From an uncultured delta proteobacterium (lineage in GTDB: Bacteria; Desulfobacterota; Desulfobacteria; Desulfobacterales; JAHEIW01), in the NCBI GenBank assembly GCA_963706575.1, contig CAVPNL010000006.1, forward strand, positions 128,001 to 192,000: a stretch of DNA of 64,000 bases, written 5' to 3'. A program made the translations under genes and the position numbers. Every line of letters starts with the position of its first letter. The first letter of the stretch is position 1. Shown in pieces: positions 10,130-27,918 of the stretch. The notes beneath the pieces were generated by a model. That model worked only from the letters and a program-made list of their open reading frames with translations. It was not told the origin of the DNA and ran no database searches.

Positions 10130-10180
10130 AATCGCTGCACGATTTTATATTCGGGCGGTTTCACCGCTTGAAATTAAGAT

Positions 10181-10237: not shown

Positions 10238-10308
10238 CTCTCCTATTTTGCAGATAAGAAATTAAAAAATTATTTAAAATTGAAAATTTTAAATAGGGGG
10301 GTAAAAAA

Positions 10309-12043
10309 GTGTACGACAAATTAAACAAATTCGAAAAAATAGTATTTGATGTGTTGGCTGTCATTCTGGTCCTTTTTTACTCCTATTCCGCTGTTTTACA
10401 ACCTGCCTCCACCCAGTATCACCGCGGGATATACGTGATCATCACCTACGTTCTGGTCTTTCTGCTGTATAAATCCAAAAGCCGCTGGCTGCGGGCAGTC
10501 GACTATCTGCTGATTTTTCTTTCCATCTTCAGCATCGGCTACTGGATCCTGAACTTCGAAGCCATCAACTACCGCACCGGTGCCGAGACGCAGTTCGATA
10601 TGTTCGTGGCGATGATCGGGGTTCTGATCGGAATCGAGCTTGCCCGACGGGTGGTGGGCTTTGTTTTTGTGATCATCGGGACGCTGATGTTGGTTTACGC
10701 GGTCTATGGTTACCTGGCCCCTGATCTTTTTGCCCATGCGGGCGACACCTTCCCGGCGGTGTGCACCAGCATCTTTTACAAAAGCGACGGCGTCTTCGGC
10801 ATTATGGCCAATGTCCTGGCCACCTATGTGATCTTATTTGTTCTTTTCGGGGCTTTTCTGGAAAAGTCCGGGGCCCAGCGCTTTTTTATTGATTTTCCCC
10901 TGGCGGCCGTCGGTCACAGAATCGGCGGGCCGGCCAAAGTTTCGGTCATCGCCAGCGGTCTGTTCGGCTCCATATCCGGAAGCGCCATCGCCAACACGGT
11001 TTCCACCGGCGCCTTCACCATTCCCATGATGAAAAAAGCCGGGTTCAGACCCCATATCGCCGGCGGCATCGAGCCGGCAGCCTCCATTTCCGGCATGTTC
11101 ATGCCCCCCATCATGGGAGCGGGCGGCTTTATCATGGCCGAGCTCACCGGGGTTCCGTATTCCAAAATTATGCTGGTGGCCATATTCCCGGCGATTATGT
11201 ATGTCTTCAGCGTGTTTATCATGGTGCACTACGAAGCCAAGAAGTATAATATCAAGGGCGAAAAAAGCGAGCACAGCGCCATGCAAATTATGAAAACCGA
11301 GTGGTACTACATCATGCCGCTGGTTATCATCACCATTCTGATGCTTTACGGCTTCTCCCCGGGTTATTCCGCTATTCTGGGCATCGTCACCTGCCTGATC
11401 GTCAGCTGGTTTAAAAAAGATACCCGCATCACGCCCAAAAGATTTGTGGAAGCCTCCCGGGCGGGCGCTGAAAACAGCCTCAAGATCGGCGCCACCGTGG
11501 GGGTCATCGGCATTATCATCGGGGTGCTGACTTACAGTGGACTGGTGCTCACCTTTGCCGATATTGTGATCGAACTGGCCGGTGGTTCCCTGGTTTTAAC
11601 GATTTTGTTTATTGCCCTGGCTTCCCTGGTACTGGGCATGGGGGTCCCGGTCACCGCCGCCTATCTGATTACCGCGGTTGTGGCCGTGCCGGCCTTAATC
11701 CACCTGGGGGTCAATGAAATCGCGGCCCATATGATCGTTTACTGGCTGTCGCAGGATTCCAATATCACACCGCCGGTGTGTATTGCGGCCTTTGCAGGCG
11801 CCACGATTGCCAAGGCCAACATGTGGAGAACGGCCTTTGCCTCTTTTAAATTTGCCAAATTTCTGTACCTGGGACCGTTTTTATTCGGTTATGTCCCGGG
11901 CTTTTCCTTAAACGGCAGCGCCTGGGATATTATTAAAGCATTTGTGCTTATCATATTGGGTACCTATGCGTATTCCTGATATTTTGAGCGGTATCTGGTT
12001 GAAGCCCTTAATAGGCATGTTGAAAAAAACACCGGCAAGCTGA
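10309..12043 (+). CDS. TRAP transporter fused 4TM/12TM permease. The annotated stop at 11979 is probably premature; a frameshift restores a C-terminus ending at 12043
   Basis: GGPAKVSV, SGSAIAN, PPIMGAGGF, LGMGVP, ITPPV motifs; the +1 frame after 11980 reads ILSGIWLKPLIGMLKKTPAS*. Confidence 0.9.
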
Positions 12044-12091
12044 TTTTCGTTTTTTTAAATTTCTTTATTTCATTTATGAAGAGGCAGAAAA

Positions 12092-12622
12092 ATGAAACTA
12101 CCCAAAGTTGATGTCAAAAAAATACTGTATGCCACCGATCTTTCTGAAAATGCACGCTTTGCGTTTGCTTACGCGGTGAGCCTGGCCGATCTTTATGGTG
12201 CAAAAATTGCCCTGCTACATGTACTACCCGAAATCTCGGAACTGATGGACCACCACGTTATCGGATATATTGACTCAGACCGATGGGAGGAAATAAAGGC
12301 AGAGCATTTTAAAGAAGCCAAAGAAGCCCTTATCGGGAAAAGAAAAAACCACCTGGCCATTAAAGATGTGCTGCATCAATTCAGTCAGAAAGTAAAGGAA
12401 GGACAGGAAGGTGAGGGCTTTATCACGGATGATATTATTGTCGAAAGAGGAAATCCGGTTGAACAGATTTTAAAGCAAGCTGAAGAACGCAGCTGCGACC
12501 TCATCGTTATGGGCACCCACGGGCATGGAACCCTGGCAGACGTCATGCTGGGCAGCACCGCCCGGCGGGTGATCCGAAGATCAAAGATACCGGTTTTGGT
12601 GGTCAGACTGCCAGAAGAATAA
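12092..12622 (+). CDS. Universal stress protein (TRAP-associated, TeaD-like)
   Basis: KKILYATDLS, DLIVMGTHG, LGSTARRV, PVLVV. Confidence 0.93.
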   Translation: MKLPKVDVKKILYATDLSENARFAFAYAVSLADLYGAKIALLHVLPEISELMDHHVIGYIDSDRWEEIKAEHFKEAKEALIGKRKNHLAIKDVLHQFSQKVKEGQEGEGFITDDIIVERGNPVEQILKQAEERSCDLIVMGTHGHGTLADVMLGSTARRVIRRSKIPVLVVRLPEE

Positions 12623-13288: not shown

Positions 13289-13864
13289 ATGAAAAAGGAT
13301 GATCTTACGCAGGTGAAACACATCGGTGCTTTACGAATGAAAATGCTCAACGATGCGGGGATTAAAACCATCAAACAGCTTTCTGAAATACCGTTGGAAA
13401 AGTTGATCCAGGTAGAAACCATCGGTGAACATTATGCAAAGCTGATCAAGACTGCTGTGGCGGAATCTTATGGGGAAAAACCGGTGAAATCAGCCCCAAA
13501 GGCCGTTTCCGTCAGAAAAAGGAAAACGGCGGCGGCCGATACGGTCTTAAACAACAGGATTGCGGTGCTCAAAAAACGCTTAAAACAAGCCAATGAAAAA
13601 TTAAAGCCCCTGGACAAAAAGAAGTACCTGGAATTGTATGTCGATTTTAAGAAAAGATCCAAAAGGCTTAAGGCCCATCTTGGCCGGCTAAATGAAAACC
13701 CGGGAGATCTTTCCCAAAAGGCTACAAAAAATATCATCAAAAATGCCGATGCCTTGAGTGCCACCTTGAAAAATGTGGGCAAAAAACTCAAGAAGAAAAA
13801 ATATCGACAGGTATCTCAGGAAATTCAGTCGTTTTCTAAAATGCTCAAGAAGACTCGCCCCTAA
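13289..13864 (+). CDS. Helix-hairpin-helix domain protein with lysine-rich helical C-terminus
   Basis: DDLTQVKHIG...LNDAGI...LIQVETIG tandem HhH pattern; AAGGAG RBS before ATG 13289; stop abuts the next start. Confidence 0.8.
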   Translation: MKKDDLTQVKHIGALRMKMLNDAGIKTIKQLSEIPLEKLIQVETIGEHYAKLIKTAVAESYGEKPVKSAPKAVSVRKRKTAAADTVLNNRIAVLKKRLKQANEKLKPLDKKKYLELYVDFKKRSKRLKAHLGRLNENPGDLSQKATKNIIKNADALSATLKNVGKKLKKKKYRQVSQEIQSFSKMLKKTRP

Positions 13865-14587
13865 ATGACAAAAATACTATTGCTGGGGGATATCCATGCA
13901 AATTATCCGGCTTTAGAAGCGATTATAAAGTATATTCAGCCGGATCGGTTTGATTGGATCGTTAACACCGGTGATTTTACCGTTTACAGTACTTTTCCCA
14001 ACGAAACGATTCAATGGTTTCGTGAGCGCAAAAGAACCATCTGCATATTGGGCAATACGGATCGAAAAATTTTAAGAATACTCAACGGCAAGAAACTAAA
14101 AAAACCAAAAAAAAATGAAAAGCGGGTGATGTACTTTTGGACGTCTGAACATCTACATCCTGAAAATATCACCTACCTGAAATCTTTACCCGAGCAAACG
14201 GATTTTACGGCAGGCGGTTTCCGCATCGGGATATTTCATGGGACCCTGGAAGATCCGGATGAAGAGTTGTGTCCTTCGGCCTCCGAAAGTCGTTTTCGTA
14301 AACTCGCAAAGCACTCGCGCTATCAGGTTCAGATCATGGGCCATTCCCATGTGCCCTATTATCGGATTGTCGATGGGATTCATTTCGTCAATCCCGGCAG
14401 TGTGGGGCGCATGTTTGACGGTGATCCTCGGACCTCTTTTGCGATCCTTAAGGTTGCTTCCGGGAAAATAGCCGTGGAACATTTTCGGATTCCCTATGCG
14501 GTGGAAGCGGTGATCGCGGATCTGAAAAATCAAAAACTGCCGGACATCTATGCAAAAATGTTCAGGGTTGGAAAGAAATTAAATTGA
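13865..14587 (+). CDS. Calcineurin-like metallophosphoesterase (YfcE/Metallophos_2 type)
   Basis: GDIHAN, TGD, GNTD, FHG, GHSH, NPGSVG motifs. Confidence 0.92.
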   Translation: MTKILLLGDIHANYPALEAIIKYIQPDRFDWIVNTGDFTVYSTFPNETIQWFRERKRTICILGNTDRKILRILNGKKLKKPKKNEKRVMYFWTSEHLHPENITYLKSLPEQTDFTAGGFRIGIFHGTLEDPDEELCPSASESRFRKLAKHSRYQVQIMGHSHVPYYRIVDGIHFVNPGSVGRMFDGDPRTSFAILKVASGKIAVEHFRIPYAVEAVIADLKNQKLPDIYAKMFRVGKKLN

Positions 14588-14648
14588 TCCCGGCCAAACT
14601 CGACGCTTTTCAAGAAAAGGTTCTCCACGAGAAAGATGCCGTATTGTT

Positions 14649-15698
14649 ATGAAAACGATAGAAGCAAAAGAAAATAGACAAAAAGATTCGAAAGAAAAGG
14701 TACCGGGTTCGACGGCACAGATCAGAGATGCTTTGAAGAAAGCCGAATCGGAAGTCACACGTGTCGCTCCGGAAAAACGATTACGCAAGATCGTAAAGGT
14801 TCTCAAGAAAAAGGATAAAAATGAAATTATCCAGGCGGTTTTGGAGAAATTTTATAATGCCGAGGAGTTAAAACCTTACCAGGCGGAGCTTATCAAAATG
14901 CAGCACCATCTGGAACGGACCGGAAAAAAAATGGTGATCCTTTTCGATGGCCGGGATGCCTCCGGCAAGGGTGGGACCATCCGCCGAGTAACGCGCTATA
15001 TGAATGAAAAACGATATCATGTGGTGGCACTGGGCAAACCCAATGAAAACCAGAAGACAGAACTACATATCAAACGTTATATCGAACATTTTCCTTATGC
15101 CGGAGAAATTGTTTTGTTTGACAGAAGTTGGTACAATCGAGCCCTGGTTGAGCCGGTGATGGGATTTTGCACACAGAAGCAATATAACCGCTTTATGAAA
15201 AAAGTGAATACCTACGAGCAAAATTTCCTCGAAGATGACGGCAGGACCATCCTGCTCAAACTCTATTTTTCGGTAAGCAAAGAAGAACAGGCACGGCGCT
15301 TTGATAGAAGAAAGAACGATCCCTTAAGGCAATGGAAACTTTCGGAAGTGGATTTGCAGGCCCAGGACTTGTGGGACGAATTTACCAAAAAAAAATTCAT
15401 GCTGTTAAAAAAGACGCATACCAAAAAATCGCCATGGTACGTCATCCGATCCGACGATAAGCATCTGGCCCGACGGGAAACCATGAAAGTCATCCTTAAT
15501 AGGGTGCCTTATAGAGGAAGAAGCCGCAAATTGGATTTTACCCTGGATCCCAATATTGTTATCCCGGGCGATCGGGAATTAAAGATAATGAAAAAACAGA
15601 CTGAAAAAATATGGCAAGTCCCTGGTGTGATTGCTGAGATTTTTTGGTCCGGGAAAAATATTCCAGATTTCATAGATTGTGTTTTCTTCGTTAATTGA
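14649..15698 (+). CDS. ppk2: Polyphosphate kinase 2 (copy A). The true end is probably 15630 after correcting a +1 base near 15600
   Basis: DGRDASGKGG Walker A, LFDRSWYNRA, DPLRQWKLS lid, PWYVIRSDDK. Confidence 0.93.
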   Translation: MKTIEAKENRQKDSKEKVPGSTAQIRDALKKAESEVTRVAPEKRLRKIVKVLKKKDKNEIIQAVLEKFYNAEELKPYQAELIKMQHHLERTGKKMVILFDGRDASGKGGTIRRVTRYMNEKRYHVVALGKPNENQKTELHIKRYIEHFPYAGEIVLFDRSWYNRALVEPVMGFCTQKQYNRFMKKVNTYEQNFLEDDGRTILLKLYFSVSKEEQARRFDRRKNDPLRQWKLSEVDLQAQDLWDEFTKKKFMLLKKTHTKKSPWYVIRSDDKHLARRETMKVILNRVPYRGRSRKLDFTLDPNIVIPGDRELKIMKKQTEKIWQVPGVIAEIFWSGKNIPDFIDCVFFVN

Positions 15699-15716
15699 TA
15701 AACCGGAGGGGGAAAA

Positions 15717-16722
15717 ATGGCGAAAAAAAAACCGCAGAATAAAAAAAGTAAGAAGAAATCCAAGGCCTTAGCAGTGAAAGAAATTGAACCAATTGCGGTC
15801 AAAGATGAAAAAGCAGAAAAAAAAGAAAAGAAGTCACCGAAAAAAGGCAAAAAACTGAAGCGAAAGTTATCCGAACACACCAGTCTTAAAAAATTTAGAT
15901 AAGAAAAAAACAAAAAAACGCCAGGCCGTTTGGGTAAAAAAATTCACCCTCGCATACGAACAGGAGTTGCATAAGCTGCAAATAGAGCTTTTGAAATGGC
16001 AAAAACATGTCATTGCCAACGAACAGCGTGTATTGATGTTATTTGAAGGCAGGGATGCCGCCGGCAAGGGCGGGACGATAAAAAGGATTATTGAACATTT
16101 GAACCCAAGGGGTGCCCGGGTTGTGGCGCTTCTAAGACCCAGCGACAGGGAACGGACGCAGTGGTATTTTCAAAGATATATTCAACACCTCCCGTCTGGA
16201 GGGGAGATCGTACTCTTTGACCGTAGCTGGTACAATCGTGCCATGGTTGAACCGACGATGGGTTTCTGCACCGATGAGGAGAATAAACGCTTCTTAAAAG
16301 ACACACCGATGCTTGAGTCCATGCTGGTCAAGAACGGAATTATTTTGTTTAAGTTCTTTTTCTCTGTTTCAAAAGAGGAACAGCTGCGCCGGTTTGATTC
16401 CAGAGAGACGGATCCTTTGAAACAATATAAAATCTCCCCGGTTGATCGAGAGGCTCAAGAAAGGTGGGATGATTATACGGTAAGAAAATTCCAGATGCTC
16501 AATGAAACGAACCGAACCATTTCTCCATGGATAATTATCCGTTCCGACAACAAGAAAAAGGCCAGACTCAACTGCATCAAACATATTCTGTCCCGAGTCG
16601 AGTATAAAGGTAAAATTCCCGTGGAGGAAATCGAGATCGATCCTGAGGTCGTGGTATCGGGCATTGATGAAATCAGATTTATGGAAGATCATTTAATGAC
16701 GGGCGTGGAATTACCGGGATAA
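15717..16722 (+). CDS. ppk2: Polyphosphate kinase 2 (copy B) with Lys-rich N-terminal extension; frameshift near 15888-15896 joins ORFs 15717-15902 and 15967-16722
   Basis: EGRDAAGKGG, LFDRSWYNRA, DPLKQYKISPVD; GGAGG RBS at the 15717 start; the downstream frame is open back to the A6 run. Confidence 0.9.
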
Positions 16723-16794
16723 TTCAGGTTCATCAGCACGGTTTGGATATGCCATTCAAAATTATTGACCGTGATAAGAAATAAGGAGGACGAT

Positions 16795-17088
16795 ATGCCG
16801 ATTCAAGTTATCATTAAACGCAAATGGCAGATTGATAAGCCCGAGGCACTGCTCCCGCTTCTAACTGAACTGCGTTCTCTCGCAAAAAAACAACCCGGCT
16901 ATGTTTCCGGCGAGACATTAAGAAGCCTTGATGATCCCGAAGATTACATGGTCGTAAGTAAGTGGAAGACAGTTGACGATTGGAACAAATGGTTGCAGAG
17001 TAAAAAAAGAAGGGACCTTCAGGGCCGGGTGGACTCTCTGATCGGAGAAAAAACCTTTTACGAAATTTTTGAACCCGTGAGCCACTGA
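16795..17088 (+). CDS. Antibiotic biosynthesis monooxygenase (ABM) family protein
   Basis: AKKQPGYVSGETL, VVSKW...W..W...S pattern; AAGGAGG RBS. Confidence 0.85.
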   Translation: MPIQVIIKRKWQIDKPEALLPLLTELRSLAKKQPGYVSGETLRSLDDPEDYMVVSKWKTVDDWNKWLQSKKRRDLQGRVDSLIGEKTFYEIFEPVSH

Positions 17089-17178
17089 CGGACGGTTGTC
17101 GGCATAGCACCGGCTGGGGCAAAAAGGCAATCTGAAGAATGGACGGGCGTATTATGCGGGTTAAGGAACTCTTGGATA

Positions 17179-17216
17179 AAAAAGGGCAGTCTGACGTAAG
17201 GGTCCAGATTGCCCTT
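17179..17216. terminator. Intrinsic terminator between convergent ABM and Lys-rich genes
   Basis: aaaaa-gggcagtctg...cagattgccc-tt hairpin; U-tract on the minus strand. Confidence 0.65.
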
Positions 17217-17243
17217 GAATTTCATGCTTTTTTGAAATAACCG

Positions 17244-17507
17244 CTATTTCTTTTTTTTCGTCTTTTTTCCTTTTTTCTCCGTTTTCTTTTGTTTTTTCTT
17301 TGCTTTTACTTTCTTCTCTTTCTTTTTTTTCGTCTTTTTTCCTTTTTTCTCCGTTTTCTTTTGTTTTTTCTTTGCTTTTGCTTTCTTCTCTTTCTTTTGC
17401 TTCTTTTTCGCTTTCTTTGCCTTCTTCTTTTCCTTTGCTATCTTTACTTCGGCCTCCTCAGTTTTCTTTTCTTCCTCTTTCTTTTCTGGCTCCTTTTTTT
17501 CTGCCAT
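17244..17507 (-). CDS. Histone H1-like, extremely lysine-rich protein (50 of 87 residues K)
   Basis: Strong GGAGGAGGGG RBS, downstream terminator, acidic N-terminus, two 24-aa repeats. Confidence 0.8.
   Translation of the reverse strand: MAEKKEPEKKEEEKKTEEAEVKIAKEKKKAKKAKKKQKKEKKAKAKKKQKKTEKKGKKTKKKKEKKVKAKKKQKKTEKKGKKTKKKK
17247..17390. repeat. 72-bp tandem duplication inside the Lys-rich gene
   Basis: EKK(A/V)KAKKKQKKTEKKGKKTKKKK encoded twice; DNA copies nearly identical. Confidence 0.85.
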
Positions 17508-17702
17508 AGTCCCCTCCTCCCTTTTTAATGTATTTTCATTCAGACCGACCGTTTATTGATGTTTGATCCGCCGCCGGAACGATTTATGGATATCGCTCGC
17601 GCAGCGCAGACGCTTGCGCCGCGCGTTGCTCCGACATTTTGATGATTTGATTTTAATGGGAAGCATTTTGTCATTTGACAATTTCCAACTTAAAATGGTC
17701 AA

Positions 17703-18200
17703 TCATGATTTATGCTTTTTAGGGAATTCGAAGAATTTCAATTTGCCGCAGTTCGCGTTCATATTTGCCCATGATGCAATATCTAAATTCACGCAAAATA
17801 CGCCGCAGGTTGGAATATTGCTGATCGGCTGATCAGCGATGTAATTGGCCAATCCATTTATAGCCGGGTTATGGCCGACGACCATGGCCTCATTCACGGT
17901 ATCGTCAATTTGTTTAACAACATGAATTAAGGCATTTTCACTGAATTCATAAATGGCTTCGCTGTATCGAATATTTTCAAGCGGATAATTGATCGCTGCG
18001 GTAATCATTCGGGCGGTCATGGCCGCTCTGTTTGCCGGGCTGGATATGACGAGGTCCGGTGTTACCTTTAATTTTTTAAGAAGGTTGCCCATAAAAGGAG
18101 CGTTTTTACGCCCGCGTTTGTTCAGGGGTCTTTCAAAATCGTCCAGCTTGGGATATTTCCAGCTTGATTTGGCATGTCGAACGATATAAAGGGTTTTCAT
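17703..18200 (-). CDS. sixA: SixA-type phosphohistidine phosphatase
   Basis: RHAKS, DFERPLNKRG, SSPANRA, VGHNP, PTCG. Confidence 0.9.
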   Translation of the reverse strand: MKTLYIVRHAKSSWKYPKLDDFERPLNKRGRKNAPFMGNLLKKLKVTPDLVISSPANRAAMTARMITAAINYPLENIRYSEAIYEFSENALIHVVKQIDDTVNEAMVVGHNPAINGLANYIADQPISNIPTCGVFCVNLDIASWANMNANCGKLKFFEFPKKHKS

Positions 18201-18267
18201 TCTTTTCCACCGGTGGGAGATGAACGAAAAGACACAATTTAGGGTTAATCGCTGCGCAACTAGGTTA

Positions 18268-18432
18268 CTACTTTAAGGCCGTCGGTTTATGCAACCATTT
18301 TTTTTTGTCCGCTACTCTGCCGCACTTAGTGCATACGAATTGAGGATTGCGGACGATATCACTGTATTTACCCAGTTTTTTTATGATATCTTCCGACTTC
18401 CATTTGCAGAGCGCTTTTGCTTTCTTTGCCAT
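18268..18432 (-). CDS. 54-aa basic microprotein with Cys/His motif (absent from the ORF track)
   Basis: AAGGAG RBS then MAKKAKALCKWKSEDIIKKLGKYSDIVRNPQFVCTKCGRVADKKKWLHKPTALK*. Confidence 0.8.
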   Translation of the reverse strand: MAKKAKALCKWKSEDIIKKLGKYSDIVRNPQFVCTKCGRVADKKKWLHKPTALK

Positions 18433-18720
18433 TTTGTTACTCCTTATGGATCTAATAAATTCGCTAGCGCCTCAACTGATATTGAATCGTTTTTCATTCT
18501 TGATTAATCTAATATCCAAATACAGGTTTGTAAACGACAAATTGCGCCATCTCTTTTCTTCTGTCAGCTCAAAATTTTGGGCGAATGCCCGAAACTCTTA
18601 GCGCGGAATTATCTCCTGCATACGGTCTCTTCTTTTCGACAAGCGATTGTCATCCCTGTCAAACACGATCACGAACCCAGTCATAAGGCAAAGCCTGGAG
18701 CATCAGCATAGCGTGTGTTT

Positions 18721-19464
18721 TTAGGGTACCAGATCTTTTTCCCATTTTTCCACACTCGGGGGCGTCTCGTCCTGCAGCAGAGCCACAAATGCCAGCAGTG
18801 CTTTACGTGCATCTCCGATAGGGTAATAAAAAGCATCCCAGTGCTCGCTATCTTCGCCATCATGAGTGGGAATAACATAGTCGAATTTCCAAGCCTCCCG
18901 CAGCTCGATGATGGCGCTGGCAACCCGCTGCTCGATGTTTTCCAAATCTTTTAGCGACGGATTGATTTTCTGCCTTTTGGTGCGGCGCAGCAGCTTTCTT
19001 CGCATGATATCCGGCAGCAGTTTTCCAAGATCAGTCCGCTGTTGCGGACCTTTAAAGAATACAATCTCTTCGCGGCAAAGGGGCGCGAGAAAAATTTTAA
19101 GCGTCGGAATATCCTTTAGTTCCTTCAATTCACTGAGCTTGGCGGGTATGAAGGGGTTGCCCTCAAAAAAGGCGTCTTTGTTCTGCTCAAGGATCGCTTC
19201 AATACCGGCGATCTCGATAGCCTGTAAATCCCCCCGAACATTCGCCGACGTAAAGCCAGGCTTTTGCGCAAGTTCCTCGATTTGCGCACGCGACCGGAAA
19301 TAGTAGTCCACACCTTCCTGCTCTCCGGGTCGCGGATCACGGCTGTTGTAAAGGACGATCTGCTGCAGTCTTTCCGCCAGTTCTGGATAAAATCTGCGCA
19401 GGGCGTTATAAAGTGGACCCTTGCCGACACACGAGGGCCCCGATAACATAACGAATCGGCTCAT
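18721..19464 (-). CDS. Guanylate kinase-like P-loop protein (atypical)
   Basis: LSGPSCVGKG P-loop, SRDPRPGEQEGVDYYF Gmk motif; AAGGAG RBS. Confidence 0.8.
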   Translation of the reverse strand: MSRFVMLSGPSCVGKGPLYNALRRFYPELAERLQQIVLYNSRDPRPGEQEGVDYYFRSRAQIEELAQKPGFTSANVRGDLQAIEIAGIEAILEQNKDAFFEGNPFIPAKLSELKELKDIPTLKIFLAPLCREEIVFFKGPQQRTDLGKLLPDIMRRKLLRRTKRQKINPSLKDLENIEQRVASAIIELREAWKFDYVIPTHDGEDSEHWDAFYYPIGDARKALLAFVALLQDETPPSVEKWEKDLVP

Positions 19465-19576
19465 ATGTAACTCCTTTCTCGGCTTATCTTGCTTGACTTA
19501 TGCGTCGCGTAGAGGATATTTCGCCTCACTTGTGCTTAAACCTTGATCTCGTTTCTGTTCTCACGGTCAGATAACT

Positions 19577-19751
19577 GGTTTCAGGTGTCAGACATAAATG
19601 GGTTTCAGGTTTCGGGTTTCAGGTGTCAGGGCACTGCGCGTCGCATCGAAACCTGAAATCTCTCTGGAATTGATTCAAGCCCATAGGCCTCAAGGCCAAT
19701 GGAAGGCCCTCCGGGCCAATTGCTGACACCTGAACACAGACACCTGAAACC
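19577..19751. repeat. Short-period palindrome (7-nt unit CAGGT(G/T)T) enclosing small GC hairpins
   Basis: ggtttcaggtttcgggtttcaggtgtcagg ... ctgacacctgaacacagacacctgaaacc. Confidence 0.8.
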
Positions 19752-19754
19752 CTA

Positions 19755-20507
19755 TCATCGTTGATAAAGTATGGTTTTTTGAACCTTGTCCCACAGGTTT
19801 TGATAGGACTTTGCAGCCAGTGAATTTGGTGAGTAGACGGCAACCGGTGACCGATAGATTCCCATTTTTTCAATCTGCGCTAAATAAGGAACAAAGCTTT
19901 GTAAGACGCCCCTAAAATCCTTTGACACGCTAAGCATCAGTTCCCGGTGCATTTTTTTGTGCAGATCCACCATTGAAAAAAAAGGGTAAATCTTAGCGAC
20001 ATCATATCTTTTCTTTTTGCAGAACGCTAGCAATTGGTTATACGTTCGCACAGAAAGCGTGGTGGGGATCATTGGTACAAGGGTGTAGTCAGCAGCGTTC
20101 AATATGTTTTCAGCCAGAATGCCGATGGTAACCGGACAGTCCAGAATTATTAAGCGATATTCACCCGCAAATGGATAAAGCATTTTTTTCAGCCGCTTTT
20201 TTGAATTGCCAAATTTATTATAGAGAACATCTAGCTTGCGAAGCGAGAAATCCGCCGGAAGAATATCCAGGTTTTCAAAATCGGTGCTTTTAACGCTTTT
20301 ATAGACACCTTTGGTCCCCTTGACGAATCCTTTGGGTCCGGACTTGAGTTTGGGCTTTACCCGGAAGTAGTATGAGGTCGAACCCTGGGGATCTAAATCG
20401 CAAATTAAGGTTTTGGCCCCTGTCTGAGCGGCCTGATAAGATAAGTTTACTGCAGCGGCGGTTTTGCCCACTCCGCCTTTATTGCTGTAAAGCGCCAGCG
20501 TTGTCAT
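19755..20507 (-). CDS. ParA/MinD-family ATPase (orphan, no parB)
   Basis: Deviant Walker A KGGVGKT, DLDPQG, ILDCP; start overlaps the CHAD stop (ATGA). Confidence 0.92.
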   Translation of the reverse strand: MTTLALYSNKGGVGKTAAAVNLSYQAAQTGAKTLICDLDPQGSTSYYFRVKPKLKSGPKGFVKGTKGVYKSVKSTDFENLDILPADFSLRKLDVLYNKFGNSKKRLKKMLYPFAGEYRLIILDCPVTIGILAENILNAADYTLVPMIPTTLSVRTYNQLLAFCKKKRYDVAKIYPFFSMVDLHKKMHRELMLSVSKDFRGVLQSFVPYLAQIEKMGIYRSPVAVYSPNSLAAKSYQNLWDKVQKTILYQR

Positions 20508-22063
20508 GAATTATTCTCTCGGACGTTTGAGGCGAAAAGTTCTTGGAACAGCGCCTGATTTGCGGGCGCTGCAAAGTCCGTGAAGGTTCTGGCAAACGCA
20601 TCTTTAACGGACTGTTTTTCGTGCTCCAATGTTTCAACCAGACCGCCGATTGCCACCAGCGTTTTTTTTAAGTGCTGCTGGCTGGCAGGTAATTCCGCGG
20701 TAATACTTAGGAGATATTCTTGCTGAACACAGAGATCGTTGAAGTCCCCTAGATTGTCCTGTAAGTTCTTTAGCTGTTTAATCAAGGCATTAATTTTCTT
20801 GCGAGGAAAAAGACTGGCGAAAAACTCCATCAAATATCGCAATTTTTTGCACTCAATTCTGAGGACATGCAACATCTTATCTTCGGTGTTTGCCAGAATC
20901 TTGTTGCCCGTTTTAACAACCCCCCTGTACTTCTTATAAATTCTCTGGCGTGCCAGATCAATTACGGGAAGCTCCGCATTTGATGCTGTAACCGAAACGG
21001 GCGGCGGCCTATTTAAAAATGCTTCCCAATCCTTCATAATCGTTGCATATTTTTTGGATTTCAGGCCGCGCATGACGTGCTGAAACGCTTTTGCTCGTTT
21101 TTTGCGCAAATGCCGAAACAACGGATCGATGTCATCCCGCAAGACAGCGGGAAGCATCGCTTTATATGCATCTTGGTTGAGCAGATAGACGTCCAAGTCT
21201 CTTAAAGCGTTGGAGCGTTTACCCACATATGCAAAATCTTTCTTAAATCGATCCGTTGTCCTGGTTGAAAACACATTTTTAATTTGAGCCAAGGCCGAGC
21301 GGGTCCTGCGAATCGCCACTCTGAAATCATGTAAAACCTCCGTATCCAGATCCTTTTCAAAGATGGCTTCGTTTATCCGCATGACATTCAACAAAAAGCG
21401 CAAAACAACTTTGGCGGCCTGATCCGAGCGCATTGCCGGGTCGAGTTGGATATTAACTTTGGCAGAATAACTGCCCGGTTTTTTGTCGACGACCGCCAAG
21501 GCCTTAAAATATATATCGTCTGCTTTACCCAAGGTAAACCCGGCGGCTTCGATTCGCGTGGCTAGATTGCGCGCATATTTGGGATATCCTTTGAAGGGTT
21601 TCAGCCATAAATGATTGGCCAACGCCGTTGTGTTTCTTTTACGCAGCGGGCGAATTTCTTCAAAAACCAATCGTGCTACTGTTTTTTCATCCGGGTTTAA
21701 AATGCGATATGGCGTTGATCGGGATTGGAGCTCAACGAGGTGCAAAAGGGCGCGCATCTTTATAATGGGTGCCAATTGTTCCTTTAATTCACCGGCGGGA
21801 AAATCCCAAATGAATACCGGTATCTTGCTGAATTCTACGCTATGCAAAATTTCGCATTTTGCTAGTTTCCGTAAAAACAGCTTGTTTCCGGATGAATACA
21901 AAATGAGTGATTTATTAAATAAGCGCCAGTCGAACGTATCGCAAATCGTAACCCTCTCGGCACCAGCAGGCTCTTTTTTGATGCTGTATTGTCCGGCCAA
22001 TTGGCGAATGAATTGCTTTTCATCATGGCCGCCCGGTAAGTTGAACTTCAGATTGTTAATCAT
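20504..22063 (-). CDS. CHAD-domain polyP-binding protein with N-terminal CYTH-like region
   Basis: LHDFRVAIRRTRS, LRDLDV, LHVLRIECKKLRY, LQDNLGDFND; N-terminal DTFDWRL. Confidence 0.93.
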   Translation of the reverse strand: MINNLKFNLPGGHDEKQFIRQLAGQYSIKKEPAGAERVTICDTFDWRLFNKSLILYSSGNKLFLRKLAKCEILHSVEFSKIPVFIWDFPAGELKEQLAPIIKMRALLHLVELQSRSTPYRILNPDEKTVARLVFEEIRPLRKRNTTALANHLWLKPFKGYPKYARNLATRIEAAGFTLGKADDIYFKALAVVDKKPGSYSAKVNIQLDPAMRSDQAAKVVLRFLLNVMRINEAIFEKDLDTEVLHDFRVAIRRTRSALAQIKNVFSTRTTDRFKKDFAYVGKRSNALRDLDVYLLNQDAYKAMLPAVLRDDIDPLFRHLRKKRAKAFQHVMRGLKSKKYATIMKDWEAFLNRPPPVSVTASNAELPVIDLARQRIYKKYRGVVKTGNKILANTEDKMLHVLRIECKKLRYLMEFFASLFPRKKINALIKQLKNLQDNLGDFNDLCVQQEYLLSITAELPASQQHLKKTLVAIGGLVETLEHEKQSVKDAFARTFTDFAAPANQALFQELFASNVRENNS

Positions 22064-22188
22064 GATTTGATTCTTCAGATAGATATTTTTGGGACACATC
22101 CAGAAGACAAATCCTGGAAATGACGAATGATGACCGCTGAACCTGCTTGTTTCTCTGATATCCGGCTTTACTTTCGCTGAAGCCGCTT

Positions 22189-24435
22189 TTAGACCTTGGC
22201 TTTATTCTTTGATTGCTTACCGATGAGCTCGATAAACATTTCTTGTGCAGCGCATCTTTTTTTACCTTTGCGTAGGCGTCGTCTTACGTATTTACCGTCA
22301 GGCCGCATATCCCAGGCCGAGCAGTTGTCGTTTTCGTAAACTTGCACGGTCTGCTCCAACTCCAGTTTCAGTGTGGGGTCGGTAACGGGCATGATCGTTT
22401 CCATGCGGCGGTCAAGGTTACGCCGCATCCAGTCGGCTGAACCGATGAAGAATTCCGGGTCACCGCCGTTTTCAAACCGATAGATGCGTGAGTGCTCTAA
22501 AAAACGACCGAGGGTGCTGTAAACCCGTATCGTTTCGGATAGCCCGGGGACCCCCGCGCGCAGGCAGCACAGACCGCGAACATTCAGGCTTATGGGCACG
22601 CCTGCTTGACTGGCAAGGTAAAGTTCGCGAATCATACGTGCGTCCTGGAGCTGATTCATTTTGGCCCAAATACCTGAAAGACGGCCTGCCTGGCTGTGCT
22701 GCATTTCGCGATGGATCAAGTCGGTGAAGCTCTCGCGCAAATTGTAAGGAGCGACCATTAGCTTGCCGTAGCCGGGAGAAGGCGTGGCGCCTGTCAGTTC
22801 GTTGAACAAAGCCGCAACATTCGCTCCTAGTTCCGGTTCACAGCTCAGAATGCCCATGTCTTCATAAATTCGAGCAGTAATGGTGTGGTAGTTTCCGGTC
22901 CCCAAGTGAACATAGCGGCGGATGCCGTCTTTTTCTTCGCGGACGACGAGAGCCAACTTTACGTGGGTCTTCAGTCGCTCTACACCGTAGGCAACGTGAG
23001 CGCCCTCGCGCTCCAGTCGTCTGCCCCAGGCGATGTTCGGTGCCTCATCAAAGCGCGCTGTAATCTCCACCAGCACCGCTACCTGCTTGCCCTGCCGCGC
23101 CGCTTCCATCAGCGCCAGAATAATCGGCGAATCACTGCTGGTGCGATAGATGGTCAGCTTGATGGCCAGCACCTGTGGGTCAACCGCCGCACTTTGCAAA
23201 AAATGCAGTATGGAACTGTCGAAGCTGTGGTAAGGATGGTGCAATAAAATATCACCTTTGCGAATTTCGGCGAATATGTCTTCAGAATCGCTAAAATCTA
23301 AGCGTCGCAGACGGGGATGGGTTACCGGCTGATGGGGTGGATCGCGCAGTTCCGGGTAACCCTCCACCTGGAACTTCATCAAATCCGCCAGACTCATCAG
23401 ACCCTTGACAGGTTCGAGATCACTTGGATCAGCCTTGAGTTGCTCGCAGATCCAGCGTTGCAGCTTTTTGGGCATGTTAGCGCTAACCTGAAGGCGTGTT
23501 ACACCGGCAAATTTTCGGGCGGTCAGTTCTTCTGTTACCATGCCGATGAGCCGACCCGGAATAAGATCGGCATTAGGATCTTCCAAAATTGTCCGTTCCC
23601 ACGGGTCATCCTTGGCGACGCGGGTTACGCGGAAAAAATAATACTTAAGGCCGGCTGCCTTGGGGAATAGCAGTCTGAGGTTGGACGCGATCACCTGCTC
23701 CAACGGAACAAACCCTTTGCTGCCGGGCAGAGGGACCCAGCGCGGGCGGTTTGCCGGAACCTTGATGCGCACGAAGCGATTGCGTTTCTTTTTGGTTTCC
23801 TTAACCTCCACCGCAAGGTTGAGCCCCAGGTTGCTGATAAAAGGAAAGGGGTGTGAAACGTCCACGGCAAGCGGTGTCAGGATGGGCTCCACCGATTCAA
23901 GGAAATAGCGCTTCATTTGTTTCTGATGTTGGTTACTCAACTCCGTATATTCTACAATGGGGATTCCGGCCGCTTTCAAAGCGGGTCGAAGCTTATGGGT
24001 CACCAAACGAGAAACGAGGTAAGCCTGTCTATGTAATTCTTCTCGGCAGGCTTGCAGTTCCTCCTCTGGACTTAGCCCGTCGGGGGACAGTTTCTTTTTC
24101 TTTTTGCGTTTCCTTTTCTCTATCTTGCGTTTGAGCCCACCCATACGCTTCATCGCAAACTCGTCGTACAACATACCCATGATGCCAGCGAACTTGACAC
24201 GTTCAAGCAAGGGTAAATGCTTATCTTCTGCAAGTGCGAGCACCCGGCGGGCAAAGCTGAGCCAGCTTAACTCACGGTTGATGAGGGTACTTGGTGAATC
24301 AACATCGATTTTTTTCGGTTTTTCCGCGGTTCTTGATGCCGGTTCTATGGGCATATCTTTTGCAGTAGAAATGCCGGTTAACTGGCCTCCCCTGGCAATT
24401 AACGGTTTTTTGGGCTGATGCTCCTGAGGACTCAT
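22189..24435 (-). CDS. ppk1: Polyphosphate kinase 1
   Basis: NRELSWLSF, HPFPFISN, LLHHPYHSF, ARFDE, KTHVK, GRFLEHSR, SADWMRRNLDRR. Confidence 0.96.
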   Translation of the reverse strand: MSPQEHQPKKPLIARGGQLTGISTAKDMPIEPASRTAEKPKKIDVDSPSTLINRELSWLSFARRVLALAEDKHLPLLERVKFAGIMGMLYDEFAMKRMGGLKRKIEKRKRKKKKKLSPDGLSPEEELQACREELHRQAYLVSRLVTHKLRPALKAAGIPIVEYTELSNQHQKQMKRYFLESVEPILTPLAVDVSHPFPFISNLGLNLAVEVKETKKKRNRFVRIKVPANRPRWVPLPGSKGFVPLEQVIASNLRLLFPKAAGLKYYFFRVTRVAKDDPWERTILEDPNADLIPGRLIGMVTEELTARKFAGVTRLQVSANMPKKLQRWICEQLKADPSDLEPVKGLMSLADLMKFQVEGYPELRDPPHQPVTHPRLRRLDFSDSEDIFAEIRKGDILLHHPYHSFDSSILHFLQSAAVDPQVLAIKLTIYRTSSDSPIILALMEAARQGKQVAVLVEITARFDEAPNIAWGRRLEREGAHVAYGVERLKTHVKLALVVREEKDGIRRYVHLGTGNYHTITARIYEDMGILSCEPELGANVAALFNELTGATPSPGYGKLMVAPYNLRESFTDLIHREMQHSQAGRLSGIWAKMNQLQDARMIRELYLASQAGVPISLNVRGLCCLRAGVPGLSETIRVYSTLGRFLEHSRIYRFENGGDPEFFIGSADWMRRNLDRRMETIMPVTDPTLKLELEQTVQVYENDNCSAWDMRPDGKYVRRRLRKGKKRCAAQEMFIELIGKQSKNKAKV

Positions 24436-24929
24436 GATTTCTTTTTTCTCCGATCACCACAATTGATGGAGCGCTAATTTCATGAATTGACGAAGCGGGA
24501 AATATCGAATTGGCAAGAACGCGCGTTTGATAAACTTGCGAGACGTATTGTGGATCGACTTCAGGATTGTCGCAGGTTGTGAAATCAAATTTTTTCCCGA
24601 ATCAATGCTTTATAGATGACAGTCGGATTGAATGTCAACCCAAATTAATAAAGAATGCTGGTAACCCATTAATTTTTAATCGATTTTTTGCATGCTTGTT
24701 TTTGCGTTAAGCCATATAACTGAAAATTTATAAAAATGCAGCCAGGCGTTTACTCAAAATGGGAAGCCATGCAGCATTTGACTTTCTCATGAACCTGCTT
24801 CACAATATCATTAATGCAAATTTATGATTTCGTTTCGCTGGTTGGTTTTTGGCGCCTTTAACCAAATGCCGCAAGTGCGGACAGCCGTTTATTTTAAGCC
24901 TTAAAATTTCATTTAGAGCACTTTTTATC

Positions 24930-25943
24930 ATGGAATCACAATTAAAATTTGCCGCCATTGATATCGGCTCAAATGCCGTCAGACTTTTATTGTCCGGTGT
25001 ATTTGAAGAAGCGCATTCAGCGAGTTTCAGAAAAATGTCGTTGATCCGTATGCCCATTCGCCTGGGTGATGATGCCTTTACTCAAAAATGCATTTCTGAC
25101 AGCAAAGTCTCACAACTTGTCAAGAGCATGATCGGGTTCAAACACCTGATCGAAGCCTTCCAGCCGCTGGATTATATGGCCTGTGCCACATCGGCCATGC
25201 GTGAGGCGGAAAACGGGCCGGAGATATGCAATCGAATTCTCCAAGAATCTGACATAAAAATTAATATTATTGATGGCAAAACAGAGGCGCAATTTATTTT
25301 TGAGAACAAAAGTGCAGATATGTTCGGTGGAAACGATGCCTACCTGTATGTGGACATCGGCGGGGGTAGCACGGAAATTACCCTGTTTTCACAAGGCCGA
25401 ATCATTACATGTGGTTCATTTAACATCGGAACCATACGATTACTGGAGGGCCTGGTATCAAAGGCGTATTGGAAGAAAATGAGACTGTGGCTGAAAAACT
25501 GCTCCGCTCCCTTCACTTCATTGGCGGCGATTGGAAGCGGCGGTAATATTAATAAGATATTTCGTCTGGCAAACTGTAAAAACGGTAAACCGCTTTCGGA
25601 TAACAAGATGATGAAAGTCCGCCGGTTTTTAAAGCATTTTACCGTTGAGCAACGCATCAGGGAATTAGCTTTACGGCCGGACCGAGCCGACGTCATCATT
25701 CCGGCATTGGATATTTATCTTAAGATTATGAAATGGGCCGGTATCCGTAAAATCTACGTTCCTCAAGTCGGCTTAGCCGATGGTATCGTTCGCACATTAT
25801 ATGATAGATATAAAGTTTTATCCATTTTCCTGAAAGATTTCTTTGGCCACACGAAGGCTGTCCATTGCCGCCGGAACACCACAATAAATGGCGGCCTGGA
25901 GGAGAACCTCCATGATATCGTTCTTGCTACAGCCATTGTTTAA
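24930..25943 (+). CDS. ppx: Exopolyphosphatase Ppx/GppA (short form); 3' end overlaps the convergent CMD gene
   Basis: AAIDIGSNAVRL, ATSAMREA, DIGGGSTE, DRADVIIPA, GLADG. Confidence 0.92.
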   Translation: MESQLKFAAIDIGSNAVRLLLSGVFEEAHSASFRKMSLIRMPIRLGDDAFTQKCISDSKVSQLVKSMIGFKHLIEAFQPLDYMACATSAMREAENGPEICNRILQESDIKINIIDGKTEAQFIFENKSADMFGGNDAYLYVDIGGGSTEITLFSQGRIITCGSFNIGTIRLLEGLVSKAYWKKMRLWLKNCSAPFTSLAAIGSGGNINKIFRLANCKNGKPLSDNKMMKVRRFLKHFTVEQRIRELALRPDRADVIIPALDIYLKIMKWAGIRKIYVPQVGLADGIVRTLYDRYKVLSIFLKDFFGHTKAVHCRRNTTINGGLEENLHDIVLATAIV

Positions 25944-26724: not shown

Positions 26725-27801
26725 ATGAAAAAGCTTAAATTGCTATTGGTTTTAGGATTGGCTGTGGTGTTACTATCGGTATTTGTTTTACCTGGCCCTG
26801 CATCAGCAAAATACGTGTGGAGATGGGGAACCTCTGATCCAGCTGCCTATGGTTATCGGGTATCCGCTTTCATGTCAGATTTCCTGCGAAGGGGGATGCC
26901 GGATTACGACGTTACCGTTTACCCATTCGTTTCAACCACCGCCAGCGTCAAGAACTTTCTGGTGGGTGAGCTGGAAAGCACGTATATCGCCGAGCCGGGA
27001 TTCGGAAAATTGTACTCGTTTCAAAAACCATTTGAGGGTTTTGAACCCAACGTAAAGCAAATGCCGGTGCAGTCTTTATGGAGCTACACCATGGAAACGC
27101 ATATATTGACTTTACCGGAGAATAAAGACAAATATCGGTCCTGGCAGGATTTGGACGGCAAGAAAATCTATATGACCAAGGCGGGCTATATGAACCACAT
27201 CAACATTTTCAGAGCCATGAAGGACATCTGTGGTCTGAACATTACGCACGTCGAAGTCGATGCATCAAAAGCTGCGGATGCTCTCAGGGCCGGTACGATA
27301 GACGCCGTGGCAAGTTACACAACGGCTCTGGTATCACTGGCGACCTGGGCCAAGGCGATGGATGTTGCCACCCCCTTGCAGGGAGTGAACCCAACCCCGG
27401 AACAAATCAAGAAGCTTACGGCGGCAGGTTTTGCCCCCGTGAAGATCAACATGAAAAAAGCGTATACCAGAGACCTGGGAGTGAAGGAACTCTATGGCAT
27501 ACCTTTTTTCTTTGGCTACCACCACGGGACCCTTTTCTCGGAAGAGGGCGTTTATAAAGCTCTCAAAGTGTTTGAAGCCGCAGGACCTGAGCTAATTAAG
27601 CTGGACCCCGGTTTCGGACCACTGGCCGCAGACTTTGCCGGGTTCCAAGTCCAGGGGATAAACAGCATTCCCGAGGTTCCGGTACATCCGGGTCTGGCGC
27701 ATTATCTGAAGGAAAAGGGCCTGTGGGACCCGGCCTGGAAAATAGCGACTGAGGGGACGATCAAGGCAGCGATAGAGTCGATGAAAGCGAAAGCGAAGTG
27801 A
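26725..27801 (+). CDS. TAXI-family TRAP solute-binding protein (divergent type)
   Basis: Signal peptide, PVHPGLAHYLKEKGLW C-terminal TAXI motif; AAGGAG RBS; adjacent fused permease. Confidence 0.85.
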   Translation: MKKLKLLLVLGLAVVLLSVFVLPGPASAKYVWRWGTSDPAAYGYRVSAFMSDFLRRGMPDYDVTVYPFVSTTASVKNFLVGELESTYIAEPGFGKLYSFQKPFEGFEPNVKQMPVQSLWSYTMETHILTLPENKDKYRSWQDLDGKKIYMTKAGYMNHINIFRAMKDICGLNITHVEVDASKAADALRAGTIDAVASYTTALVSLATWAKAMDVATPLQGVNPTPEQIKKLTAAGFAPVKINMKKAYTRDLGVKELYGIPFFFGYHHGTLFSEEGVYKALKVFEAAGPELIKLDPGFGPLAADFAGFQVQGINSIPEVPVHPGLAHYLKEKGLWDPAWKIATEGTIKAAIESMKAKAK

Positions 27802-27840
27802 TCTTTTTGGGGAAAAGTAAGAGCTAGTTGAGGTTGATAA

Positions 27841-27886
27841 TAGTGGGCTCACCCCTGTAAAACGCCAACAAGGGGTGAGTTCACTA
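27841..27886 (+). promoter_or_regulatory. Intercistronic stem-loop between second TAXI gene and permease
   Basis: 16-bp stem tagtgggctcacccct / aggggtgagttcacta. Confidence 0.6.
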
Positions 27887-27918
27887 CTTCTTGAGTCATA
27901 CCGTTAGGGGGTGAAAAG

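Follow-up and report, generated by a model that had tools for sequence, protein, structure and literature searches.

A polyphosphate gene island of Desulfobacterota with a ParA ATPase and a TTM-CHAD protein as a putative granule-positioning pair

Enzymes of the PPK1 and PPK2 families make and spend polyphosphate (polyP), and Ppx removes it. In a genome whose relatives carry the label Desulfobacterales such genes lie together with an orphan ParA-type ATPase and several small basic proteins, which raises the question whether the locus, read in an initial annotation as a dedicated module for synthesis, coating, tethering, segregation and turnover of polyP granules, also places the granules in the cell.

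Gene content of the island

Profile searches confirmed the cluster at positions 13289..25943 of the window (the whole stretch of 64,000 nucleotides that was analysed), and all genes named initially, i.e. ppk1, two ppk2, ppx, the CHAD gene, sixA, a metallophosphoesterase and the accessory genes, are present. Since tblastn places ppk1, ppx, CHAD, sixA and both ppk2 here and nowhere else in the genome (5.67 Mb, 92% complete), the clustering is not due to chance. The features are as follows.

13289..13864, plus strand: HhH DNA-binding-type domain (residues 1-64) and a very basic four-helix bundle (77-191), model pLDDT 78.6
13865..14587, plus strand: calcineurin-like metallophosphoesterase (PF12850, 3e-24), in 18/27 long Desulfobacterota loci
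14649..15698, plus strand: PPK2 of class I type, ppk2a (PF03976), with one extra base near 15600
15717..16722, plus strand: PPK2 of class I type, ppk2b (PF03976), split by one extra base near 15890
16795..17088, plus strand: ABM-domain protein following ppk2b (PF03992), in 14/27 long Desulfobacterota loci
17244..17507, minus strand: disordered Lys/Glu-rich peptide of 87 aa, 57% Lys, with a strong ribosome-binding site
17703..18200, minus strand: SixA-like phosphohistidine phosphatase (PF00300; TIGR00249 below cut-off), in 25/27 long Desulfobacterota loci
18268..18432, minus strand: basic Cys/His peptide of 54 aa, probably zinc-binding, in 23/27 long Desulfobacterota loci
18553..18621, minus strand: remnant of a 200-aa gene, 23 codons with an in-frame stop
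18721..19464, minus strand: divergent guanylate-kinase paralog (Gmk-like protein), PF00625 matching residues 2-103 only
19755..20507, minus strand: orphan ATPase of ParA/Soj type belonging to a distinct basic subfamily, its start codon sharing 4 nt with the CHAD stop
20504..22099, minus strand: TTM-like domain (about 15-205) and CHAD polyP-binding domain (about 210-523) (PF05235, 1.6e-55)
22189..24435, minus strand: PPK1 with an internal poly-Lys stretch (TIGR03705, 732 bits, above cut-off)
24930..25943, plus strand: short single-domain Ppx/GppA (PF02541)

The island has two layers, a CHAD-ParA core and a shell restricted to Desulfobacterota. The shell, consisting of the HhH/basic-bundle protein, the Lys/Glu-rich peptide, two PPK2s, SixA, the phosphoesterase and the ABM protein, is preserved across several gene orders; neighbourhoods were counted in long loci, 27 from Desulfobacterota and 13 from other phyla. 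The islands of relatives also hold USP, Na/Pi-PhoU, CBS and DUF498 genes and, at the place of the remnant, a 200-aa gene followed by a 152-aa CYTH gene that retains EIERKF, both of which are lost here. The 200-aa gene, in which CYTH-like motifs were seen by eye, was rejected as a CYTH protein (no match in Pfam or PDB, and a probability of 0.2% with the profile of the 152-aa CYTH protein).

The two PPK2s score 355 and 295 bits with TIGR03707 (cut-off 302). In relatives ppk2b is a single ORF of about 310-350 aa. Its N-terminal tail (roughly 80 aa, Lys-rich) appears here as a separate 61-aa Lys-rich ORF (15717-15902), cut off by one base too many in a run of A near 15890. For ppk2a the stop of the relatives falls at about 15630. 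Both extra bases are absent in 4/4 relatives with alignment coverage there; these are probable assembly frameshifts. In one study, contigs of two RNA libraries span 29 and 30 of 30 bins, such contigs being no proof of transcription, and a 720-nt contig across both sites shows two gaps. The ppx reading frame is longer than that of the relatives and overlaps a converging CMD gene, and ABM has eight more matches elsewhere in the genome.

The locus shows the highest lysine richness of any stretch of the genome. Low GC was considered as its source and rejected, GC3 being 0.51 vs a median of 0.55 and the locus still ranking top after regression.

The CHAD-ParA core

The CHAD protein has the CHAD fold with the His/Arg pore residues of CHAD/phosin polyP-binding proteins, and comparison with the polyP-bound Chlorobium CHAD 6QVA gave 39% identity and a TM of 0.94 of target. 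The residues tested for polyP binding in Chlorobium tepidum (PDB 6QVA/3E0S), H253, R256, R260, R296, R418 and Y419, correspond to H257, R260, R264, R300, R421 and Y422 here (PMC6537752, in part; papers so marked are cited for their available sections), and the polyP-binding residues are invariant in 59/59 sequences. The solved structure is the CHAD domain alone (PMC6537752, in part), whereas the protein here has in addition a TTM-like N-domain and a candidate ATPase partner. In Ralstonia the deletion of CHAD proteins gave no apparent phenotype (PMC6537752, in part). The sole basis for calling the N-domain TTM-like is a fold search, matching TTM folds at E about 3e-4; PF01928 did not match the CHAD protein, nor was there a profile match between the N-domain and the 152-aa CYTH protein of relatives. 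The N-terminus reads NNLKF, the Glu pair is absent from the consensus, and the domain lacks the ExExK motif of active CYTH/TTM enzymes.

The ParA contains the deviant Walker A with signature Lys as well as intact Walker A' and B motifs, and K10, G11, G12, G14, K15, T16, D37, D39, Q41 and D123 are invariant in 77/77 sequences. A MinD-type C-terminal extension is absent, the mean net charge of the subfamily is +14, and the C-terminal basic residues K184 (77/77), K185 (65/77) and R219 (74/77) are kept. The second Arg of the PRNVR stretch in the closest solved ParA (8RAY) aligns to a non-basic column, and because this Soj-type Arg position is non-basic here, nucleoid binding is not assured. An additional basic patch of the subfamily lies at 49-66; polyP, rather than the nucleoid, could be the ligand of the basic surface. 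The gene does not belong to a ParABS arrangement, as no parB is adjacent; ParB matches were found only on other contigs, namely on C2 and, next to a Soj-like gene, at C8:171484.

Of the 72 loci with at least 500 nt of upstream sequence, 69 have the end of CHAD immediately upstream of parA, and in 38 of those 69 the genes overlap. Among 300 genomes of the phylum the ParA subfamily has 13 carriers, with CHAD adjacent in 13/13, while CHAD occurs in 37, 24 of them without a match to this ParA. In 36 other families of the order, ParA and CHAD are carried by an identical set of six genomes, and the HhH protein is found in 5/6. Kinship and physical linkage inflate all these co-occurrence counts. The core is also found in other phyla without the shell (0/13 long loci), and in 9/13 of these without ppk1 within 8 kb. 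Two genomes that seemed to have ppk1 and no module (G004, G017) were considered as cases of gene loss in close kin and are not counted as such because their contigs end inside CHAD.

Modelling of the complex predicted that ParA docks on the TTM-like domain with a score of 0.61, the best control reaching 0.01; the score mark was attained by 116/157 solved complexes and 2/215 mismatched pairs, counts that are only roughly valid here. At least 81% of the contacts were common to the runs, the pLDDT of the partner was at least 80, and the modelled interface consists of about 20 contacts made by two partner loops and one ParA copy only. Both of its faces consist of conserved residues: K139, K/R170, G171 and Y172 in 59/59 for the TTM-like/CHAD protein, and R49 in 76/77 and D76 and D81 in 77/77 for ParA. 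The interface motif is retained in G212 and L219 though the Gmk-like gene there occupies the place of ParA; G212 (100% complete) has sixA, CHAD, Gmk-like, HhH, phosphoesterase and ppk2 genes and no ParA match. Judged from sequence and model, the ATPase has an adjacent partner that would bind both it and the cargo.

Accessory proteins

The HhH part of the first protein has its structural match in the N-domain of Rad51 (64 residues at rmsd 1.8, Z 10.6), while the bundle matches generic bundles only; no CHAD chain was among the matches listed when the bundle was considered as half a CHAD domain. With a net charge of +31, and with 3 strong matches in 300 genomes, 3/3 beside phosphoesterase, ppk2 and CHAD, the protein is a candidate nucleoid-granule tether. 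The ESM Atlas gave named clusters for the Gmk-like and HhH proteins only.

ORFs resembling the 87-aa peptide occur in 14/27 long Desulfobacterota loci, at two different positions. The peptide and the ppk2b tail each contain a PASK window (16/20), defined as 20 aa with at least 75% D/E/S/K, although such a motif is no guarantee of polyP binding (PMC12345225); they are 2 of the 11 ORFs with a PASK window among 6268 crude ORFs, and the peptide is a candidate polyP-coating peptide. It had initially been described as H1-like and likened to AlgP of Pseudomonas aeruginosa, which is likewise small, strongly basic, of low complexity and linked to polyP (PMC9239181, PMC11894788). The analogy did not hold, as the KPAA repeats and the structured N-domain of AlgP are both missing from the peptide, which is Lys/Glu-rich and PASK-like and contains a single Pro; KPAA or PAA was found neither in it nor in any of the homologous peptides (0 in 17/17), and a KPAA-type ORF sits on another contig. 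A dedicated polyP role, also proposed for the Cys/His peptide, is not supported by its surroundings, as ppk2/ppx lie near 1/21 distant matches and the two paralogs that this genome encodes stand in unrelated contexts; this peptide is mostly not polyP-linked, a local recruit or a passenger.

The E..GNYYGT stretch of guanylate kinase accounts for nucleotide specificity and GMP recognition. At this place the Gmk-like protein reads VRGD(L/F)Q, whose V, R and D are shared by 36/36 distant homologs, in which the P-loop is also followed by Pro (36/36). Together with the partial PF00625 match and a TIGR03263 score of 61 bits (cut-off 160) this sets the protein apart from canonical guanylate kinases, and a canonical Gmk is encoded elsewhere in 4/5 carriers. 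In places without ParA the gene is again found next to CHAD, PPK2 or PPK3-like genes, which makes its product a candidate polyP-linked nucleotide kinase. The genomic pattern, an NMP-kinase paralog that lies among polyP genes while the canonical enzyme is encoded elsewhere, is that of PPK3 in Sulfolobus, where dTMP kinases found in sixA/ppx/CHAD neighbourhoods were exapted (PMC12995831, in part); the Gmk-like protein differs in its guanylate-kinase scaffold and in being a single gene. The terms guanylate, Gmk and COG0194 gave 0 matches in the supplement text examined of PMC12995831 (in part), and a literature search, with most subscription papers outside its reach, found no paper whose title, opening of the abstract or available sections link a guanylate-kinase paralog to polyP.

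Granule positioning and its alternatives

The initial annotation would have been weakened by accessory genes that do not accompany ppk/CHAD genes in other genomes; ParA, the HhH protein and the Gmk-like protein do accompany them. This co-occurrence, the predicted ParA-CHAD binding and the lysine richness favour the dedicated module; it is however not one indivisible, lineage-specific unit, because other phyla have the core with no shell around it and G212 has the shell but no ParA. With about even confidence we regard the locus as a polyP storage island with a two-gene mechanical core, ParA/TTM-CHAD, that would position granules. The CHAD domain would bind the granule, as shown for the 39%-identical Chlorobium protein, and the TTM-like domain, without a catalytic ExExK start, is predicted to be the adaptor on which ParA docks. 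An ATP dimer of ParA would sit on the nucleoid via its basic residues and be released near adaptor-coated granules, a cycle that may space the granules or set their number in the manner of McdA/McdB. In Desulfobacterota the core would have acquired the shell of lysine-rich proteins, probably for electrostatic granule targeting, with the HhH/bundle protein as a possible bridge between DNA and granule. The adjacency counts, the docking model with its conserved interface, the intact ATPase motifs, the basic charge with invariant K184 and the location of ParB matches on other contigs speak for this reading; the non-basic Soj-type position, the 24 CHAD carriers without a match to this ParA, the interface motif retained in G212 and L219, the long loci of other phyla with no ppk1 nearby and the Ralstonia deletions speak against it.

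In the McdA/McdB system of carboxysomes a signature-Lys ParA-type ATPase is likewise encoded beside a cargo-binding partner and cargo genes, with no ParB nearby, a basic C-terminal region and no MinD-type extension (PMC11407121, PMC13052382, both in part). Unlike there, the putative cargo is a polyP granule and the partner a folded TTM-like/CHAD protein that would dock by two loops instead of an N-terminal peptide, and the similarity of the ParA to McdA is distant only (E 5e-14). In Acidithiobacillus the neighbourhood folD-ppk-parA-(CYTH)CHAD also has ppk1, parA and CYTH-CHAD adjacent and conserved; in the available sections of PMC6416229 and PMC10892726 parA is called a partition protein, cAMP or copper is discussed, and neither granule positioning nor the shell genes of the present island are described.

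The same docking model, with its interface on one ParA copy only, would also suit a ParA that binds TTM/CHAD but senses ATP and acts as a switch at the granule. Its matrix would be polyP, not the nucleoid, and like FlhG/FleN-type ATPases it would regulate rather than transport, controlling size, nucleation or enzyme access by energy charge. The extra patch at 49-66, the missing Soj-type position, the partner switching of FlhG and a ParC that has the basic residues and yet has not been seen on the nucleoid (PMC11407121, in part) point this way, but K184, K185 and R219 are conserved in a pattern that the same paper (in part) ties to nucleoid binding, and a DNA-binding-type HhH protein accompanies the pair in Desulfobacterota; we consider this reading less likely than positioning. 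If, on the other hand, the locus were an ordinary phosphate/energy-stress island, its polyP enzymes, SixA, CYTH, Na/Pi transporter, USP and CBS genes would be co-regulated and co-transferred, lysine richness would reflect substrate binding, and ParA-CHAD would be non-spatial or position something else. Such ppk/ppx/sixA/CHAD neighbourhoods are already known (PMC12995831, PMC6537752, both in part), the additional genes of the relatives and the loss of two cluster genes here fit as well, but this reading does not explain why CHAD and parA overlap as a pair across phyla where the other genes are missing, nor why the predicted interface is conserved, and we consider it unlikely.

Granules might also be tethered passively, by the logic of AlgP/PhaM, through the Lys/Glu peptide together with the HhH/bundle protein, ParA being a dispensable modifier. 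This would agree with the gene set of G212 and with the reliance of known polyP and PHB spacing on single DNA-binding tethers (PMC13052382, in part); it appears very improbable, the HhH protein being rare (3/300) and missing from 13/13 long loci of other phyla that retain ParA. A wider proposal, in which the island is a polyP organelle kit of the ParA/TTM-CHAD machine, the HhH-basic-bundle tether, lysine-rich tags and a Gmk paralog exapted for phosphate transfer between polyP and nucleotides, is quite unlikely as a whole; if true, the Gmk paralog would add another independent family of polyP kinases to PPK1-3.

The same literature search found no paper assigning a ParA to polyP granules in its title, opening of the abstract or available sections. 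According to a 2025 review it is unknown whether polyP granule positioning depends on ATP, and AlgP is the sole factor that this review names (PMC13052382, in part). For the preferred reading, granule positioning by ParA/TTM-CHAD, the locus offers a named ATPase, a named adaptor and a predicted interface with point-mutable residues, and with the Gmk-like kinase and the HhH/bundle protein it adds two more undescribed candidates. This makes the question of granule positioning directly testable. The metagenomes with these organisms are from sediment and estuary, where polyP storage bears on phosphorus cycling.

Gene content of the polyphosphate island

All 14 ORFs that the initial annotation had assigned to one gene cluster were found in place, and a tblastn search of the whole genome (25 contigs, 92% complete) confined ppk1, ppx, CHAD, sixA and both ppk2 to this locus. 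The polyP island is real and conserved, as observed in its gene content, linkage and conserved residues. The genes discussed most are:

18268-18432, minus strand, Cys/His peptide (54 aa)
18721-19464, minus strand, Gmk-like protein, a divergent guanylate-kinase paralog
19755-20507, minus strand, orphan ParA ATPase
20504-22099, minus strand, TTM-like/CHAD protein (the partner)

Two reading-frame faults, an extra base in an A-run near 15600 and another near 15890, are specific to the source assembly, both being absent in all four relatives aligned across them, and are most likely homopolymer errors; the second PPK2 therefore carries, as in the relatives, a lysine-rich tail of ~80 aa. A remnant of 23 codons at 18553-18621 is the trace of a lost 200-aa gene and a lost 152-aa CYTH gene, both kept in relatives. 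Searches with the relatives' queries revealed no copy of either elsewhere in the source genome, which holds one other CYTH-family gene. The 200-aa gene (L061:9586-10188, a scanned locus, and homologues) belongs to no known family, is conserved, accompanies Gmk-like and CYTH genes and is CYTH-like by eye only.

The ppx frame passes the relatives' stop and overlaps a converging CMD-family gene by 126 nt (25818-25943), which looks like a recent junction. Pairs of a TAXI-type binding protein and a DctM transporter flank the island on both sides (9164-12622 and 26725-29895), the left flank including a USP gene and recurring at three scanned loci (L074, L076, L141). The short intergenic repeats at 17545-17650 and 19595-19755 are REP/MITE-like: blastn gave 18 genomic matches for the first and 14 for the second, and sediment metagenomes cover them at very high depth. 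Further along the window two very long minus-strand ORFs, 51012-55727 and 57942-63995, encode 1571 and 2017 aa.

Shell census in 27 Desulfobacterota loci of at least 12 kb, grouped by record title; 8 kb was covered on each side, so that all counts are lower bounds
sixA 25
Cys/His peptide 23
ppk2 22
CYTH 20
HhH 18
Phosphoesterase 18
ppk1 16
ABM 14
Lys-rich peptide 14
Gmk-like 7
ppx 5

Among 13 ParA loci of at least 12 kb from other phyla, at least 12 contained CHAD and three ppk1, with zero, likewise as a lower bound, for every other gene of the census. The shell is kept in at least four gene orders, which favours selection over inherited synteny alone. The proposed link of the HhH protein to polyP genes was borne out, as all three strong matches in 300 genomes adjoin phosphoesterase, ppk2 and CHAD; the family is small (32 clusters at E 1e-30), and its model pairs an HhH domain with a basic four-helix bundle, the latter with generic matches only. 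The Cys/His peptide had also been proposed as polyP-linked, a claim not upheld by its distant matches, of which only one in 21 has ppk2 or ppx within 1.5 kb.

Gmk-like protein and lysine richness

Taken as a whole, the Gmk-like protein is not basic (48th percentile). Its P-loop and RxxRxGE...DY stretch are retained, while a conserved VRGD(L/F)Q replaces the E..GNYYGT of solved guanylate kinases and a basic lid is added. A canonical Gmk exists elsewhere in four of five carriers of the gene; no other Gmk was found in the source genome, so a housekeeping role may apply there. In a metagenome scan (best 80 of 347 loci, near-duplicates included, 57 holding at least 3 kb) cluster genes accompany all 29 loci at ≥75% identity. 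Among the 28 more distant loci, 15 adjoin CHAD, ppk2, CYTH or a tandem dTMP-kinase-like pair, a further two the 200-aa gene and 11 none of these, a ppx in a housekeeping setting at one of the 11 being left uncounted; three CHAD calls were made via Pfam, before those proteins joined the CHAD profile. In one compared genome (G212) CHAD has the Gmk-like gene as its immediate downstream neighbour. PPK3 is described, in the part of PMC12995831 available, as tandem dTMP-kinase paralogs in sixA/ppx/CHAD neighbourhoods. At L239, L244 and L252 the Gmk-like gene has as neighbours SixA, Nudix or CHAD and bacterial dTMP-kinase-like genes, which form tandems at the first two loci; these are probably PPK3-type clusters. 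Our best guess is a nucleotide kinase partnering polyP enzymes; that it uses polyP as donor seems improbable.

The island has the highest mean lysine content of 3152 ten-ORF windows genome-wide (crude ORFs ≥150 aa) and the second-highest mean net charge, behind contig region C1:76-93 kb, which contains an L17-like ORF and is presumably a ribosomal-protein region. GC3 does not account for the lysine richness. The genome has 11 PASK-type ORFs, two of them within the island; in the available part of PMC12345225, E. coli YihI and Rnr bind polyP via lysine-rich stretches, a PASK motif being no guarantee. The 87-aa Lys/Glu-rich peptide had been likened to AlgP (PMC9239181, PMC11894788, as far as these were accessible); neither it nor its 17 listed homologues contain KPAA repeats, so the comparison is valid for charge only. 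The better AlgP/H1 look-alike of the source genome is a KPAA-type (Lys/Ala/Pro-repeat) ORF of 108 aa at C4:102307-102633, far from the island, between oxidoreductase and glycyl-tRNA synthetase-like genes.

Linkage of CHAD and ParA

The start of parA and the stop of the CHAD gene share 4 nt. Among the best 80 of 143 ParA relatives from a genome scan, mostly in genomes labelled Desulfobacterales, 72 loci extended 500 nt or more upstream; a CHAD gene ends within 400 nt upstream of parA in 69 of the 72 (overlapping in 38). In the remaining three, CHAD lies downstream (L126), on a separate contig of the same genome (L104) or was not found within 15 kb (L124). In a less biased sample of 300 evenly drawn genomes of the phylum (completeness ≥90%, up to nine candidates scored per genome) the ParA subfamily (E below 1e-64) occurs in 13, all with CHAD adjoining (12 tandem, one convergent), and a weaker fourteenth match (37%) is without CHAD. 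At a 37%-identical relative lacking CHAD (G029, L050:7572-9007) a same-strand gene for a charged, probably coiled-coil protein of 206 aa precedes, possibly a different cargo adaptor.

CHAD occurs in 37 of the 300 genomes, 24 of them without a match to this ParA among the up to nine candidates scored per genome. The CHAD frame is at most 425 aa in 18 of the 24 unpaired cases and at least 461 aa in all 13 paired ones; of six long unpaired CHADs, five were examined, with the same N-domain present in two and absent in three. Across the order's 36 other families ParA and CHAD are confined to the same six genomes (HhH in five, ppk1 in only two). Kinship and physical linkage make these co-occurrence counts non-independent. 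ParB matches in the source genome lie only on other contigs, none near parA.

Predicted docking and possible role

In the partner model (pLDDT 89.7) the N-domain has a TTM/CYTH fold, and the CHAD domain shares 39% identity with the polyP-bound structure from Chlorobium. The six polyP-binding residues tested in PMC6537752, as far as that source was available, are invariant in the partner family. No ExExK start is present in the TTM-like domain, which is therefore read as an adaptor. When two ParA copies and partner residues 10-512 were modelled together, the complex scored 0.61 against 0.01 for the best control, with at least 81% of contacts shared between runs and partner pLDDT of at least 80; among solved complexes 116 of 157 attain the mark for this score, as do two of 215 mismatched pairs, counts only roughly valid for the ParA-partner job. 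The model thus supports a predicted docking of ParA on the TTM-like domain, through ParA 48-51, 70-76 and 81 and partner 132, 137-140 and 169-172, with the CHAD domain left unoccupied. PDB sequence searches turned up neither a member of this ParA subfamily (best E 1.7e-33) nor any match to the partner N-domain, which makes recall of a similar complex by the model unlikely. Interface columns have a mean conservation of 0.79 versus 0.52 for the N-domain, 16% of whose columns attain 0.79; against docking counts that the interface motif is kept in G212 and L219, where no ParA is adjacent.

The ParA has all catalytic motifs intact, no C-terminal extension, a mean net charge of +14 and one Soj-type Arg position that is non-basic. 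For Acidithiobacillus a ppk-parA-CHAD neighbourhood has been published (PMC10892726, PMC6416229), the parts available giving it no positioning role, and reviews, in their accessible parts, name no ATPase for polyP granules (PMC13052382, PMC11894788, PMC11407121). The main rival, in which ParA is an ATP switch on the granule itself, appears rather unlikely, and we put the chance that the ParA/TTM-CHAD core positions polyP granules at about even. If the core does so, the island would work like McdAB without being a member of the McdAB family.
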